DNA of 64,000 bases from Eledone cirrhosa (GCA_964016885.1 OZ024755.1:10354001-10418000); one strand, 5' to 3'. Shown: positions 471 through 22,734, counted from the stretch's first letter. Translations and numbers: made by a program. The notes: generated from the letters alone by a model not told the origin.

Positions 471-1050
471 CCAAGGTAAACCCAGAAACTTATAGTTGAG
501 AAGCGAAGTCCTTAACCACCCAGCCATAAATGAAACATTTTTTTTTTTAAGTCTGTGGCCGAAACACGGGTGTTTATCAGGCTGGTGCTAAGAAGAAGAA
601 GAAGAAGGAGAAGAAGAAGAAATCAACTATCTTCAGTCTTCAGGCCTGGAGATGAGAAGAAATCCGGCAGGTTTAAAGTGTCCAAGACATGTGTGTAACG
701 ATAGCGCCCCTACGACACCACGAGGGGTTAAGGATTCACGAGGATGATGATTTGGCAATATCTATTTATATATATATAAAAAAAACCACTTGGTTCTCTA
801 CAAATATTTTCACTGTCATGGTCACCCCACTACCCTACCATTTCCTCTCTTCTCTCTTCCTTTCCTGGCTTATTTAGATGACATATGACTTGGTTGGAAT
901 GTGACTGGCTCTTATCTGTCTGTCGGACTGTCTATCTGTCTGTCTGTCTGTAATGCTAACTACCAACTAGTTATATATATATATATATATATATATATAT
1001 ATATATATATATATATATATATATATATATATATATATATATATATATAT

Positions 1051-1258
1051 AACGAAGGAATTGTGGTAAGGAACCAGATGGACCATAACGCACCAGAGTA
1101 CTCAATAGTTAGGGTAGTAGAGTGGGTAATAGGAAAAGGTATGACCCCGACGGCAGAGCTCAAGCCGTTTCGACGGCTATTTCTGGACTGAAATAGTCGT
1201 CCAGAAATAGCCGTAGAAACGGCTTGAACTCTGCCGTAGGGGTCATACCTTTTCCTAT
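1051..1258. mobile_element. Fold-back element (family C) between two (TA)n runs, carrying hammerhead 3' halves
   Basis: 60-bp arms at 1129-1188 and 1199-1258 with 3 mismatches. Contains GAA-ACGGC-loop-GCCGT-A/C and shares GTACTCAATA with family A. Confidence 0.6.
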
Positions 1259-1428
1259 ATATATATATATATATATATATATATATATATATATATATAT
1301 ATATGTGTGTGTGTGTGTGTGTGTGTGTGTGTGTGTTTTTACAAAGCCTTTGATTTCTGACACGCACGCATGCACACATGCGCGCGGGAACACGTGCACG
1401 CACGCACTTATCTCTCTATACATACATA

Positions 1429-1766
1429 CATGATGGCTGCCAACTCGTTTTCGAGTACGACCATTACTTTATATCCATATAGGAGAACCCCTACCGATGC
1501 GCTGAACGAGTGTGACTTTTTAGTCCAGCCAGCGACTTGAAAACTCTGGTACAAACACTACACTTGTGACAATTATTGACACATAGTGCTAGGGCCATGG
1601 TACCATGTGACGACAAGTGCAGAGAGATCTCCAGATATAAAGCAATGCCTGTGCCGTGAAGCTTTTATAGTGAGTAAAGGCACTGCACAAAGCCAGTCCC
1701 ACTCTGTTAACCAAGATGATATTTACCAAAAAGAAGAACAAGTCAACATCATTGGATACCATCATA
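1429..1766 (+). mobile_element. MITE-like element of about 335 bp, copy 1
   Basis: Near-identical to 8811-9144. Imperfect TIR CATGATGGCTGCCAA / TTGGATACCATCAT(G), in TA-rich microsatellite flanks. Confidence 0.65.
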
Positions 1767-3229
1767 CATACAAATATGCATACATACATACAAATATACA
1801 TACATACGGGTTATATACCAACCCGCTTGGACCAAAATATGACTGAACTTGGATTTGCGGACAAAGAGCGCAGCTCCCCTAATTCATAGTCTGCAAATGG
1901 TTGCGATAGTTGGCACTTTCAAAATTTGCAAAACATTCTTGCGATTCAAGGGATGACAATTTCTTTTCCTTTACAACCTTGCACCAGGAAGGTGGCCGGT
2001 CAAAAATATATACTCGAAATTAAGAGAAAGAGATTATATACATACATACATACATACAAATATACGTACGTACTTACACACAAATACATACATACAAACA
2101 TAGACGGACAGATAGGCACAAACATTCATATACAGACAAGCATACATACACATACGCAGTGGCTGACTGGCCAGCTTACCAGGTTGCCCAATGGCAAGTG
2201 GGCTCTAGAGGGCCCACGGTAGCATTGCAAGAGCTCACAGTAGCATTGCTGGGCCCACTGTAGTAGTAGTAGTAGTAGTAGTAGTAGTAGATTAGTAGTA
2301 GTAGTAGGAGGATGAGGAGGAGGAGGAGGAGGAGAGAGAGAGGTGGGGGAGAATGGGGGAGAAATGAGGTGGAACAGAAATGAAACATGGATTGCAGGTT
2401 AAAATATAGTCTAGATAGATGTGAAACAAAACGAGGATGGAGTTTATGGAACACCCAAATGATTTAGAAGTCGACCTTAAGTAGAAGCAATAACATTAAG
2501 AAAGACATGAACGACGCCACAGTGTTGAAAATTTTGGAAGTAGGTTTATAAGTATGAATTTTCATAAGATTTTCGTAGTTGTCTCTGTGGCCTAGCGGTA
2601 AATATTAGAGACAGTGGAGCTCCTACCCTTGGGTTCAATCCTGGTCAAGAGGTAGATGCAACCTTTTTCAGTTTTTATTTTACAGCCAATAGAAAAAAAA
2701 AGTGTGTGTGTGTGTGTGCGTGGTAATTAGTAGGCGTTGAAAAGAAAAAGGATTTATTGTCTAATAGTAGTTAATTGTTAAGCGTTTTAATCTAATCGAT
2801 TTGCAATGCATACGAATATGAGCAGTGGCCTCTACGACGAATATCTAGGCTCTATAATTCTCTCCTTCAAAACACTGTTATTCTTATTAGTGTTGTTGTT
2901 GTTAGTAGTGGTGGTGTTTTTTGTTGTTGCTACTGTTGTTGTTACAGCTCACACCTATGTAAGTTTAACTGTCCTTCTACGAGGTTGTGTCTCATAGATT
3001 TGTTGGTTGTATTAACAATAGGGACCCTACTCTTATATTGTAACAGCTCTCACTTATGCAGGTTTAGTTAGCCCTCTACGAGGATGTGTCTCCTATTAGG
3101 CTTTTCGGGTGCTTTAACCCTTTCGTAATTATATTTCTAATGAAAATCACTGCCTATGATTTTCAAATCATTTTGAAAATAATCGAGTATTTGAAATGAT
3201 TTAGTCATATAAATTAACTTTAAATAATT

Positions 3230-20092: not shown

Positions 20093-21555
20093 TTATATAT
20101 ATATATATATATATATATATATATATATATACTTATTCATACCTTGTAGTGATATTCAGAGGAGGAAGAGGAAATAATGTTTTAGTGTGTAGTGATGACA
20201 ATGTAAACACGTTATGTCATCATCAGTCGAAAAATTTATGAAGCGATGTCACCAACACGCAGTAATAATCATTTCACCATAAGTTACAATAACAACAGCT
20301 ACAGTAGCTACAGAAGCAGCAGCAGCTGATGATGATAATGCAATTAGGTTGTATGTGTCTATATATATATATATGTAACGGCTATAATGATAGCCGTTAC
20401 ACATATATATATAGACACATACATACATGTTTACACACATATATATACACATAATACATATGTACATATATATATATATATATATATATATATACATACA
20501 CACATACATACATAAATATACATACACATACATATATACACACATAATATATATATATATATATATATATATATACTCACATACATATATGTACACACAT
20601 ACATATATGTACATACATGCATACTTATACACACATATTTCAATCTACTTTGTAATATCTTAATTCTTTATATTATTTGTATCATTATTATTATAACCTT
20701 TAAAGAAGACGGTACAGGAAAACTTCTTTCCTATGCTAGACCATGCTGTGTGCAGTCTGATAGGAAGTATTTAAAAAGTTTTAAATTGGTCTCAACATCA
20801 ATACTATATAACAACAACAACAACAACAACAAAAACAACACAAATAATTGTTTCTTCTTTGAAGAGAAGGGGAAAATCAATTAAACTAACCCCAGTGCAT
20901 TACTGGAACTTATATAACTTCAACAATAATAATTGTTTCTACGTTGAAGGGAAGGGAAAAGTCAATTACCTGGACTTTATTTTATCGACCCTGTAAAGAT
21001 GTAAGCCAAAGCTAACCATACCAGGATTTGAACTCAGAACGTAAAGAAAGTCTGTAACTATATACCTCAAAGCATGTTGTCTGGCGCTCCACCAATACTG
21101 CCATTCAGAGAAAGAAGAGTGGAGAAAGAAGAAGAAAAAAATAAAATAAAAGAAACTAAAATGAAGGCAAATATGAATTGTGACATCTCGTGTATTAACA
21201 TTAAGGTAAATATAAGTTAACCATTGATCATCATCATCATCATTATCATCATCATTTTTATGTTGACTTCTCCAGGCTGGCATAGGTTAGACTGTCCGAT
21301 ATGTTATATTGTATGTTGGGTTGGGGTCAGACACAAACTGAAGGGCTACACCGGTGGCACACTCTCTAGATATGGTACTGATCACTTTTATCATCATCAT
21401 CATCATCATCATCATCATCCTATAAAATAATTAGTTCCAGAACATAACCAGATTCGCTTTAACCAAGAATTGAATATGTTAGGAACTTATTACCTCTTAT
21501 TTACCACACACATGATAAAGATTGAAAAATAGTCAGAAATAAAATTGAAATTGAT

Positions 21556-21715
21556 GAGACACCGAGCAAGATGGTTGGATAACATTCATGAGCTTGGCTG
21601 GTCTTGCTTGGGGATCCAGTCGGATCAACTGGAGACAGTTGCTTCTGATTAGACCTGCTAGAAGGAGAACATGAGGAATCTGCCCCCACGACCCTCCCAA
21701 GAATAAGTGGGCAAA
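21556..21715 (+). mobile_element. RTE LINE 3' fragment, same family as 264-470
   Basis: CGAGCAAGATGGTTGGATAACAT...GATCAACTGGAGACAGTTGCTTCTGA is homologous to the reverse complement of about 300-420. Confidence 0.65.
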
Positions 21716-22187
21716 GAAGAAGAGAAGCTGTCATGTCCTTGACTCAACTAAAGGTTCCTCCCAACCCTTTTTTTTTTGCATCTTTCTATGTCAGGATGCT
21801 ATTCCTATCACCAACACTAGAGAGGTTAGTAGGCATGTGGGTTAGATGGTAGGGTATTCAGCACATGATCATAGAGTCATAAGTTCATTCCTTGGACCAG
21901 TGCAATAATTACTTGAGCAAGACACTTTATTTCACATAGCTCAGTTAGCAAAAATTAGTTGTACCTGTAATTCAAGGGGTCAGCCTTGTCATATATTGTG
22001 TCACCCTGAATCTCTCTGAGAAGTATGTTAAGGATACATGTGTCTGTGGAATGCTCAGCCACTTGCACATTAATTTCATGAGCAGGCTGTCCCAATAAAT
22101 CACCTGGGGCACTTGTCGGAAACACTGGTCCAACTACAACACATGCACATATATATATGTGTGTGTAGGTTTCTGAGTGGTGTCAGA

Positions 22188-22324
22188 GGTACTCAATACA
22201 TTGGTAGAATATAGGAATCTTTATTATATATAGAAATGATTTCTACAGGATCAGAACTGCTTCCTTCGTATACGAATGAGGCAATTTTGGTCCTATGGAA
22301 GTCATTTCTATATATAATAAAGAT
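22188..22324. mobile_element. Family A element, degenerate palindromic copy next to (TA)n
   Basis: GGTACTCAATACAT...TAGAAATGATTTCTACAGGATCAGAACTG and an imperfect palindrome at 22217-22324. Confidence 0.55.
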
Positions 22325-22734
22325 ATATATATATATATATATATATATATATATCATTATCATCATTTAACACCCATATTTCCATGGTCAACATGCGCTG
22401 GACATGTTGTCATGGACCAAGTCGGTATTTAATCAGAATTAGTCTCCTCATTCATAGGCCAGGTGCCTATATCTTGCTAACTTACATTCCAGATTTGGCA
22501 TGATTTCTATGGCAGGATGCCCTTCTTATCACTCACCAACTACCTGGGTGCATCTGCACCAATAAATTTGTGTGTTGCATCTATTTGTTCAGCCAACCAC
22601 CTGCATACCATATGTAATCATTCATAGCTGAAGTAGAATACAGCAATAACAACAACAAAAGTGGTTGGTGATTGAATGGAAACAATATAGGTTAGAGGAG
22701 ACTCTTCAGTCTGGCCTAGCATGACAACCTCTCT

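Follow-up and report, generated by a model that had tools for sequence, protein, structure and literature searches.

Hammerhead-bearing repeats at (TA)n tracts of Eledone cirrhosa as probable ends of Penelope-like retroelements, with a putative bulged hairpin signal

What are the short repeats of the octopus Eledone cirrhosa that carry hammerhead ribozymes, fold back on themselves and end at (TA)n microsatellites, and which enzyme moves them? An earlier note on a 64,000-nucleotide stretch of the genome (GCA_964016885.1 OZ024755.1:10354001-10418000; hereafter the window) had described three such families, A, B and C, as converging on (TA)n and as possibly mobilised by a Penelope RT/GIY-YIG enzyme. 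We confirmed their shared architecture of type I hammerheads or 3' halves, head-to-head inverted pairs and (TA)n ends, and grouped with them two further families, at 13.06 kb (D) and 15.56 kb (I), that were absent from that note (Table 1). These repeats are quite probably 5'-truncated 3' ends (pseudo-LTR and tail) and non-autonomous derivatives of Penelope-like retroelements (PLEs), with the Hydra clade as their probable source.

Table 1. Features of the hammerhead-bearing repeats in the window
Feature	Position	Strand	Remarks
Family C inverted pair, head-to-head	1052-1255	.	Flanked by (TA)40 and (TA)24
Family C predicted bulged hairpin	1098-1123	minus	
Family B unit 1 (B1)	10272-10413	.	Hammerhead and terminal piece, head-to-head
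Family B unit 2 (B2)	10473-10687	.	(TA)n at both ends
Family B predicted bulged hairpin	10604-10651	plus	Outer stem GCTC/GAGC, 2-nt bulge
Family B hammerhead cores	+10532, -10333		Descriptor scan
Family A left arm	12126-12260	minus	Hammerhead core 12256, cut after 12218
Family A complete cut-to-cut unit	12266-12437	plus	172 nt, retrozyme-like monomer
Two abutting tail-to-tail fold-backs across TA runs	12402-12623	.	
Family A decayed copy	18508-18660	plus	Core CTGATGG at 18535
Family A pieces, head-to-head (A18b)	18716-18772	.	
Family A divergent subfamily, inverted pair (A22)	22165-22322	.	
Family A hammerhead cores	+12399, -12256, +18535		Descriptor scan
Family D	13050-13191	plus	Complete canonical type I hammerhead
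Family I	15478-15709	plus	Hammerhead core 15561, cut after 15589
Hammerheads not in the earlier note	+13057 (D), +15561 (I)		Descriptor scan

A three-helix descriptor scan detected seven hammerhead motifs scoring at least 8, against a mean of 0.83 in 30 block-wise dinucleotide shuffles, and five scoring at least 11 (0.03 in the same shuffles). The MFE folds of 12385-12447 (z -1.7) and 13045-13130 (z -2.1) are three-way hammerheads. By scan and folds alike the cores are real, and a reading of the families as DNA transposon TIRs with no conserved ribozyme core is not borne out. The type I hammerhead is complete in families A, D and I, core-mutated or truncated in B, and reduced to its 3' half (stem II, GAAA-like, stem III, cut site and 3' strand of stem I) in C, as it is in the 22.2-kb copy. 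Family B, with the cleavage triplet CUU, has no fully canonical copy; the one at 10333 has stem I and the core CAGAAGA, and the one at 10532 has the core CTGAAGA and no stem I. Helix III has 3 to 5 bp and loops of 7 to 10 nt in A to D and is minimal in I, and a U·U core variant (CTGA.GAT...TGAA) is present in A, B and the 15.56-kb copy of I. Four other hammerhead motifs in the window fit the minimal Poseidon/Neptune type. No hammerhead family was among the 150 of 173 Rfam matches listed, which held only chance microRNA hairpins.

The ribozymes sit within inverted arrangements, as the individual loci illustrate. The two arms of family C (1132-1188 and 1199-1255; 54/57 identical) meet inside stem II, each with a hammerhead 3' half (predicted cuts after 1149 on minus and 1238 on plus), and end 97 nt (long arm) and 17 nt (short arm) past the cut. 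B1 joins a minus-strand hammerhead (stem I 5 bp, cut after 10293) to the element's last 30 nt (10384-10413, plus), which end at (TA)29; its left end lies away from (TA)n. B2 contains a perfect 60-bp palindrome whose centre base, 10533, falls in the hammerhead core, its arms being 60/60 identical and ending 21 nt (short) and 115 nt (long) past the cut. At 12.1 kb, the left arm of family A lacks most of the 5' strand of stem I, carries a hairpin (12170-12190) and has its fixed 3' end at (TA)n, 92 nt beyond the cut. The 172-nt unit opposite, preceded by only 4 nt of an upstream ribozyme, passes a hairpin (12293-12313), reads through the usual 3' end and has at 12393-12443 a complete type I hammerhead with the U·U variant, a 6-bp stem I and a GUA cut after 12437; the inverted arms of this pair (A12) align with 88 matches, 6 mismatches and 2 gaps. 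The 18.5-kb copy (A18) has a weak inverted stub of about 20 nt (18508-18530) and a damaged hairpin, and meets (TA)n at its end, 87 nt beyond the cut. In A18b, a minus piece (18716-18736) runs from precisely the predicted cut for about 21 nt to (TA)n and is joined to the element's last 34 nt on plus. A22 is centred in the stem II loop (22270/22271) and has decayed hammerhead 3' halves, arms 46/55 identical that reach CA/TA and TA repeats 79 and 25 nt beyond the cut, and a hairpin at 22189-22210 on minus. Family D has its core at 13057, a stem I of 7 bp, a GUC cut after 13122 and, at 13173-13191, a weakly matching hairpin; an inversion and an adjacent (TA)5 were looked for there, and neither was found. 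In family I, a 28-bp fold-back (15476-15545) lies upstream of the hammerhead, whose helix III is palindromic and minimal and whose core is the U·U variant; the 3' end meets (TA)n 120 nt beyond the cut, and the hairpin motif is recognisable in its 5' half only. On the antisense strand of family A, a Pol III promoter was set aside; the box match was loose (1.9% of shuffles) and found after the fact, and ARAGORN found no tRNA.

Copies truncated at the 5' end, in tandem or inverted head-to-head, thus occur at C, B1, B2, A12, A18, A18b, A22 and I, with none at D, and every inverted pair has its 3' ends facing outward. The main inversion centres sit inside ribozyme helices, 57-137 nt from any TA run. 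The inversion near the ribozyme that the earlier note had seen holds for A, B and C, but the 15.5-kb family inverts off the ribozyme and some fold-backs at TA runs have no ribozyme (12544-12623, 20345-20430 and 29346-29385), which indicates that (TA)n also generates inversions itself. The abutting fold-backs at 12.4-12.6 kb, X-(TA)26-X' of family A (arms 44/45 identical) and the ribozyme-less Y-(TA)13-Y' (26/27), are likely the product of snap-back repair of a break within (TA)n. The 3' ends fall into two classes, short (9-25 nt past the cut) and long (79-120 nt), besides the isolated 30- and 34-nt terminal pieces, and fixed ends recur in family A (12126, 18772 and near 18660) and in family B (10413 and 10687; 10272 and 10473).

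With adjacency defined as lying within 10 nt of a run of at least five TA units, 12 of the 15 outer ends of A, B and C, which were placed by hand, adjoin (TA)n, compared with 4 of 42 among the ends of 21 copies of other dispersed repeats at 1-24 kb (Fisher p 9e-7), all ends coming from one window and not being independent. Counted by locus, after removal of two minimal-hammerhead copies from the 21 controls, the figures are 6/7 and 2/19 (p 8e-4). The background is 429 of 15565 unmasked positions, and the ends away from (TA)n are 10272, 18508 and 18772. Adjacency to (TA)n is therefore greater than background, and with (TA)n adjacency above controls and ribozyme cores above shuffles, ribozyme retroelement ends favouring (TA)n are the best reading of these families.

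A core variant, the hairpin and the spacing are shared among the families, suggesting that A, B and C are likely related by descent from one ancestor and that their description as converging on (TA)n is probably wrong. In pairwise alignments over ribozyme and hairpin, only A-C was weakly significant (7/300 shuffles; C-I 12, B-D 15). The 10-mer GTACTCAATA, which had been proposed as a shared cis signal, is exact at 1098, 12170 and 22189, and we found a fourth copy on minus at 12304-12313 (0.39 expected; 0/100 shuffles reach 4). Three of the four belong to family A, and counted as a single A-versus-C event one shared 10-mer has p 0.01-0.02; with one mismatch there was no excess (8 observed, 8.7 expected). 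The 10-mer is indeed in A and C, but it corresponds to one arm of a predicted hairpin read in antisense, being at 1098-1107 (plus) the complement of the 3' strand of the family C hairpin, and family B has its predicted hairpin in other letters.

This bulged hairpin, with an outer stem ending in GAGY, a 2-nt 3' bulge and a variable inner stem, is predicted 25-50 nt past the cleavage site in families A, B, C and D. A descriptor drawn up after the copies had been seen matched 6 of the 14 arms tested, equivalent to 6 of the 8 arms that read at least 79 nt into the element and to 4 of 5 families, and 50 of 2292 background windows; family I and A18 failed it. Among bulge lengths of 0-4 nt, 2 nt gave the best inner stem in 6/6, the hairpin is absent from 4/4 minimal Poseidon/Neptune-type hammerheads in the window, and the same rule pairs 33 of 261 background GAGY sites. 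The family B hairpin folds as the MFE structure (-8.4 kcal/mol); the others are weak (0 to -3.5 kcal/mol), with weak or no thermodynamic support in A, C and D and with the inner stems of A and C outside the MFE fold. The long arms end 24-46 nt beyond the hairpin, where an RT-initiation signal would be expected to place them. Inspection by eye of six Hydra consensus sequences showed this hairpin, with other inner stems, cleanly in three and as a near-match in a fourth. At the 3' ends of Hydra-2_Amil, Hydra-2_Ajap and Hydra-1_Crog, 38-47 nt separate it from the cut and 25-43 nt from the end, and it opens the 5' end of Hydra-1_Ajap; coral and sea-cucumber termini are among those with the hairpin. 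Naiad_Mmer shows it too, and none was seen in Hydra-1_Obim.

Read in six frames, ten further intervals and 105 stop-to-stop ORFs at 1-24 kb showed no RT or GIY-YIG recognisable by eye. One candidate PLE coding remnant (9931-10263), resembling an RT thumb by eye and oriented opposite to the hammerhead of B, was dropped as evidence, with no Pfam match, no homolog among longer proteins and 0 matches in 1.84 billion representatives. A Penelope RT/GIY-YIG remains the best reading of the mobiliser and matches published biology, although neither domain is demonstrable in the window; because no RT or endonuclease is linked there, we only infer the clade and mobilising enzyme of these families.

The anatomy of these repeats is Penelope biology already in print (PMC8557442, PMC3846280, PMC4209133). 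PLEs make up 6.83% of O. vulgaris, in 190 families, and their insertions can have an inverted 5'-truncated copy at the 5' end, a 30-40 bp tail at one end and junction palindromes; the difference between short and long 3' ends in the window exceeds that tail. Nearly all Hydra families insert in (TA)n, and one is from Octopus bimaculoides (PMC8557442); Penelope-13_HM carries an inverted 5'-truncated copy. The window families share with this clade the (TA)n targets, a type I hammerhead near the 3' end, the U·U variant (counted by eye in File S2 for 14 of its 25 Hydra families), short and long 3' ends, the inverted 5'-truncated copy, the Octopus occurrence and, by eye, the bulged hairpin, and the core and stem II of family I are close to Penelope-3_HM. 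Variant and hairpin are not Hydra-specific, since an axolotl retrozyme has the former and Naiad_Mmer, by eye, the latter. Hydra elements encode a single ORF (RT with RWK, DKT, plus GIY-YIG, C-terminal and without CCHH), whereas the window families have no linked ORF, do not match Hydra-1_Obim in sequence by exact motifs and include, in family A, an internally collapsed 172-nt unit; the listed Hydra hammerheads have a shorter helix III than A to D, with loops of 1-3 nt. Four exact motifs from A, B and C had no match among the published Hydra or Naiad sequences (PMC8557442 supplement), Naiad_Obim, Naiad_Ovul and Hydra-1_Obim included; the likeness seen is at the level of motifs.

Other systems resemble parts of this picture. 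Non-LTR retrozymes, in the portions of their descriptions available to us (PMC7229834; bioRxiv 10.64898/2026.07.22.740005), are likewise non-coding and bounded by type I hammerhead cut sites, and a PLE origin and mobilisation are proposed there. The unit at 12266-12437 is such a monomer of 50-1000 nt and fits their reported size (51-972 bp). Tandem units with two consecutive complete type I hammerheads, the rule of the 2026 preprint, were not found, and there was no array among the matches listed. The inverted, (TA)n-bounded layout is absent from those portions. Retrozymes are marked by self-cleavage and by circular RNA in vivo, of which the piece at 18716-18736, starting at the predicted cut, is the only hint here. 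In PAc (Poseidon, Anolis), RT starts internally in a stem-loop 3' of the hammerhead, about 85-92 nt past the cut, two start sites define the tail, both strands are cut and extended, and uncleaved RNA serves as template (PMC11167929); its hammerhead, however, is minimal, protein-assisted and overlaps the ORF start, its stem-loop is AC-rich, and it prefers ATT over (TA)n. Penelope of Adineta vaga shares head-to-head inverted pLTRs, junction palindromes and an optional tail, its pLTRs suffice for mobilisation in trans, and its inversions are explained by self-priming on antisense template (PMC3846280); its copies are long and ORF-bearing, with target-site duplications that are not discernible within the (TA)n of the window. 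Naiad and Neptune PLEs share the (TA)n preference and tandem and inverted ends, and one Naiad the hairpin by eye, but Naiads have an N-terminal EN and no canonical hammerheads and Neptune hammerheads are minimal, in contrast to the canonical folds here; A to D and I do not fit the Poseidon/Neptune type, which has no helix III and an unpaired base 5' of stem II.

The repeats could instead be non-LTR retrozymes that stand alone, or PLE ends mobilised by Neptune, Nematis, Naiad or a microsatellite-targeting LINE (Dong-R4). Dong-R4 targets microsatellites and shows recent activity in O. vulgaris, a (TA)n preference is listed for Octopus Naiads, Naiad_Mmer has by eye a 21-nt stretch like the family A antisense, and family A has its cut-to-cut monomer. 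We consider this unlikely, as no arm has a poly(A) or LINE tail, Naiads are described as long dead in cephalopods while the B arms are identical, and Neptune/Poseidon hammerheads are of the minimal type, matched by the window's other four motifs, in which the hairpin is missing. Even less probable is insertion in ordinary AT-rich DNA, with (TA)n growing later from internal TATA-like seeds and inversions arising by (TA)n breakage and snap-back repair. AT-repeat tracts are fragile, the short arms do end at internal TATA-like patches, ribozyme-less fold-backs exist, and the X(TA)X'Y(TA)Y' layout fits repair of one break. However, the main inversions are head-to-head and centred in ribozyme helices away from TA runs, the long arms of C, A and B end at fixed element positions without a TA seed, and B1 and A18b join non-overlapping pieces; a snap-back origin is probably true for the tail-to-tail cases only.

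We rejected two further readings. That the repeats are MITE-like DNA transposons with terminal inverted repeats in TA target sites is very improbable; inverted arms and TA flanks would suit it, and a genuine CA...TG-ended element does lie in TA repeats at 1434-1762 and 8812-9140, but Tc1/mariner MITEs have constant-length TIRs at both ends, whereas these arms meet centrally, differ in length and have junctions and centres that vary among copies of one family, and conservation lies in a strand-specific ribozyme that has a cut-to-cut unit. Scarcely credible is a read or assembly fold-back artefact at TA runs, a thought raised by the identical B arms and by the difficulty of assembling palindromes and (TA)n; the other arms differ by 5-16%, and the B short arm and the independent B1 copy stop at one and the same base.

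For PLE ends of the preferred kind, we envisage that an RT/GIY-YIG protein encoded elsewhere would bind the RNA at the bulged hairpin 3' of the hammerhead cut and, by analogy with PAc biochemistry (PMC11167929), nick both strands of the (TA)n tract, with cDNA primed from both target ends. In the long arms, whose ends are fixed, cDNA would begin at an internal site 24-46 nt past the hairpin and 79-120 nt past the cut; in the short arms, an AT-rich patch 9-25 nt beyond the cut would be where it begins or is resolved. Synthesis would halt early, often within the ribozyme, where the junctions lie, and the two ends would join or snap back via the ribozyme's own helices to give head-to-head inversions. 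Because the arms cross the cut, most templates would have stayed uncleaved, with occasional cleavage suggested by the one piece whose start coincides with the cut. Family A would move in the form of a 172-nt multimer or circle.

Since the overall pattern is known Penelope biology, the families themselves are catalogue entries. The new part of the picture is the predicted hairpin, which may be a putative RT-initiation signal. Our tentative proposal, which we think rather less than evenly probable, is that it is a conserved cis signal from corals and sea cucumbers to octopus that recruits a Penelope-type RT and sets its start 24-46 nt downstream, the 172-nt retrozyme, which consists of hardly anything beyond hammerhead, hairpin and start site, thereby being written into (TA)n from both strands. 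The hairpin outweighs the families in importance, as it bears on how PLE proteins choose their RNA and start internally, and one element has so far been reconstituted in vitro. A defined signal for the borrowing of PLE enzymes by retrozymes is not described in the portions of the retrozyme and PLE literature available to us. A structure of 20-45 nt common to autonomous Hydra termini and a 172-nt non-coding unit would offer a minimal template for mutation in TPRT assays, and with its descriptor hammerhead fragments lacking an ORF could be assigned to the clade they come from. A further question it touches is why nested palindromes gather in octopus (TA)n tracts.

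The outer ends of the fold-back repeat families A (12.1, 18.5 and 22.2 kb), B (10.3-10.7 kb) and C (1.05-1.26 kb) were placed by hand and counted as adjacent to (TA)n when they lay at most 10 nt from at least 5 TA units. Consistent with the earlier note, which had these repeats ending at (TA)n and differing in sequence, 12 of the 15 outer ends were adjacent. Other repeats in 1-24 kb served as controls and had 4 adjacent ends of 42, three of these four matches coming from one minimal-hammerhead copy and one MITE. Controls from the whole window gave 5/98, and 2.8% of unmasked positions were adjacent; counted by locus, adjacency was 6/7 versus 2/19 in controls, all DNA counts resting on one 64-kb window. 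Long TA runs were concentrated in its first 24 kb (25 of 39), and 9 of the 25 TA runs of at least 20 nt in 1-24 kb touch an arm, i.e., one half of an inverted pair. Relative to the predicted hammerhead cleavage site (the cut), the outer ends form two classes, lying 9-25 nt or 79-120 nt downstream, and exact end positions repeat among copies of A and among copies of B. No alignment beyond chance was found between families, except weakly between A and C, and the families are therefore distinct.

A descriptor comprising the core and three helices was run on both strands, with shuffled sequence as the null. It scored 13 motifs in all; 7 scored at least 8 (0.83 in shuffles) and 5 at least 11 (0.03 in shuffles). 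All 7 motifs scoring at least 8 fall in the first 24 kb, and none was found in the rest of the window, including the tribbles exons. No hammerhead was among the 150 Rfam matches listed for the window. The minimum free energy (MFE) fold of the family A motif is the hammerhead, with a U·U mismatch below stem II; the family B motifs have the same U·U layout, neither of the two copies being canonical, and only the 3′ half remains in family C and the 22.2-kb copy. The scan also brought out two additional families, D and I (table). By our count by eye, 14 of 25 Hydra hammerheads in PMC8557442 carry the U·U variant. For contrast, we used four further decayed motifs belonging to the minimal Poseidon/Neptune type. 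All have pyrimidine-rich sequence upstream, a (TA)4 run follows 35-118 nt downstream of three, and the bulged hairpin described below was found at none of the four. Minimal hammerheads and pairs on opposite strands are described in PMC4209133, and the motif at 13723 shows the U3-A8 core covariation described there.

Features of the window, with position and strand
Feature	Position	Strand	Description
Family A hammerhead	12399	+	Complete: stem I 6 bp, core CTGATGA, stem II 3 bp, stem III 4 bp, GUA
Family B hammerhead	10333	-	Stem I present, core CAGAAGA
Family B hammerhead	10532	+	Core CTGAAGA, without stem I
Family D hammerhead	13057	+	Complete, GUC; MFE is the three-way fold
Family I hammerhead	15561	+	U·U; helix III minimal and palindromic
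Decayed minimal hammerheads	4942, 5821, 13723, 14090	+, -, -, -	Poseidon/Neptune type
Second-kind inversions	12402-12543, 12544-12623, 20345-20430, 29346-29385
329-bp element	1434-1762, 8812-9140		Two copies, 97% identical; imperfect CA...TG inverted ends
Minisatellite	3232-4019		24 bp
Minisatellite	14373-14807		48 bp
Minisatellite	22754-23777		48 bp
Tandem duplication	18911-19501		301 bp
Small MITE-like element	31802-31883, 32698-32772		Terminal inverted repeats, two copies
Inverted pair	50308-50366, 50701-50759		59 bp, 98% identical, 335 bp between
Tribbles homolog 2	56270-58315		Two coding exons

The window DNA is animal and rich in microsatellites; the last tribbles exon (57.8-58.3 kb) matches TRIB2 of Octopus sinensis at 99% identity, the next best named mollusc reaching 66%, and the DNA was assigned to Octopus, vulgaris/sinensis group.

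The 10-mer proposed earlier as a cis signal common to A and C was exact at four sites (three in family A) versus 0.39 expected, or p 0.01-0.02 when taken as a single A-C coincidence. Its ribozyme-sense sequence is TATTGAGTAC, the 3′ strand of a hairpin predicted to have a 4-bp outer stem ending GAGY, a 2-nt bulge, and an inner stem of at least 2-3 bp. A descriptor for this hairpin, with the start set 20-55 nt past the cut, matched 6 of 14 arms (both arms of the 12-kb family A locus, the 22.2-kb copy, B, C, and D); the arms without a match were six short ones and, among the long ones, those of the 18.5-kb copy and family I. The background was 50 of 2292 windows or, with GAGY given, a partner at 33 of 261 sites. 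The 5′ strand of the hairpin differs (ACTC, GCTT, ATTC, GCTC) with pairing kept, and without A and C the descriptor matches two of the three families left (p 0.0014); the hairpin counts as a prediction because the descriptor was drawn after viewing the window and published copies and the folds are weak. The 329-bp element, presumably a Tc1/mariner-type MITE with copies lying in CATA and TA repeats, opens with a small perfect hairpin likewise ending GAGTAC.

Among the sequences in PMC8557442, the bulged hairpin is clean by eye at the 3′ ends of Hydra-2_Amil and Hydra-2_Ajap and, twice, at the 5′ end of Hydra-1_Ajap; Hydra-1_Crog shows it with a single outer mismatch, Hydra-1_Amil in partial form, and Hydra-1_Obim not at all. 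Inner stems vary in sequence while pairing remains. That the hairpin occurs both at a 5′ end and downstream of the hammerhead is in line with read-through from the pseudo-LTR into the next unit, i.e., the tail. A copy is also visible by eye about 120 nt past the stop codon in the Naiad_Mmer 3′ UTR (supplement of PMC8557442), so that its range may exceed Hydra; upstream of it, a 21-nt stretch resembles by eye the antisense of the family A hammerhead 3′ half. No description of the hairpin was found in the literature searched, and sources outside that scope (subscription papers, Repbase/Dfam, figure images, the preprint's supplementary files, and the O. vulgaris repeat library) could describe it or name the families. 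That it acts as an RT signal is a tentative reading, somewhat on the doubtful side.

The ribozyme sense faces outward in all main inverted pairs, and thus 5′ ends meet mid-pair. Arm identity ranges from 60/60 (B) down to 46/55 (22.2 kb). The inversion centre lies within stem II in family C, in the stem II loop in the 22.2-kb copy, in the core in B unit 2 (10473-10687; a palindrome with 1-nt spacing), at stem I at 12.26 kb and next to the core at 18.5 kb in family A, and about 50 nt upstream of the core in family I. The apparent centring of inversions near the ribozyme is partly built in, since the inserts are only 60-320 nt and were recognised by the ribozyme. At 10272-10413 and 18716-18772, non-overlapping pieces are joined, with the element's last 30 or 34 nt, respectively, on one side; at the latter, the other piece starts precisely where the cut is predicted. 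Inversions of a second kind run tail-to-tail over a TA run or are centred between runs, and arise with and without ribozyme sequence, indicating that (TA)n itself makes fold-backs. The region 12402-12623 has the layout X(TA)nX′Y(TA)nY′, the arrangement that would result from snap-back at the two ends of one (TA)n break followed by their joining. Two fold-backs at TA runs lack a ribozyme: 20345-20430 has an 8-bp stem in common with family C stem II, and 29346-29385 is similar to the terminal 20 nt of family A (25 matches in 46 columns).

The analysis demonstrates the ribozyme folds, their orientation, the junction positions, both end classes, the (TA)n excess, and the cut-to-cut unit. As a mechanism, we propose that an RT/GIY-YIG protein encoded elsewhere would bind the RNA at the hairpin and nick both (TA)n strands; priming would take place at two points, one fixed downstream of the hairpin and the other in an AT patch close to the cut, synthesis would stall early, and the two ends would be joined via the ribozyme helices. 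The two-primer idea comes from L1 twin priming, and a literature listing returned no paper that extends it to Penelope. In C, B unit 2, and the 22.2-kb copy, whose short arm is contained in the long one, snap-back of a single cDNA explains the pair equally well; the 12-kb family A locus needs a second or multimeric template. Homology searches tied no coding sequence to the families. A plus-strand frame with three stops at 9931-10263 looks by eye like a Penelope-like element (PLE) RT thumb; homology searches found nothing there.

PMC8557442 describes PLE insertions as 5′-truncated and tandem; frequently they carry an inverted truncated copy at the 5′ end together with a tail of 30-40 bp. It also defines the Hydra clade, with nearly all families, Hydra-1_Obim included, inserting in (TA)n. 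The PAc element is described as cutting and extending both strands of AT-rich DNA and working without RNA cleavage, with an internal RT start inside a stem-loop, at nt 111-118 of the ORF, and the cut at 26 (PMC11167929). Head-to-head inversions with palindromes at the junction are reported, pLTRs sufficing in trans (PMC3846280), and retrozymes are described as depending on PLEs (PMC7229834; bioRxiv 10.64898/2026.07.22.740005). PLEs make up 6.83% of the O. vulgaris genome in a report whose main text is silent on ribozymes (PMC13282606).

In the plus copy of family A (12.26-12.45 kb), the sequence continues from one cut site past the usual 3′ end and meets the next hammerhead 40 bases further on, giving 172 nt from cut to cut. 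Hence the template extended beyond the usual end, as it would for a multimer or circle, and the fixed end is internal. This unit is retrozyme-like, but does not amount to the two complete units required in bioRxiv 10.64898/2026.07.22.740005. Opposite the hammerhead, 12330-12400 (minus strand) loosely resembles an A-box and B-box (1.9% of shuffles), perhaps an antisense Pol III promoter, perhaps a coincidence.

The pattern is real, above chance, and in outline already known. The families are new members of the hammerhead-bearing, (TA)n-targeting PLEs, likely of Hydra type, and the part worth pursuing is the conserved hairpin together with the 172-nt unit.
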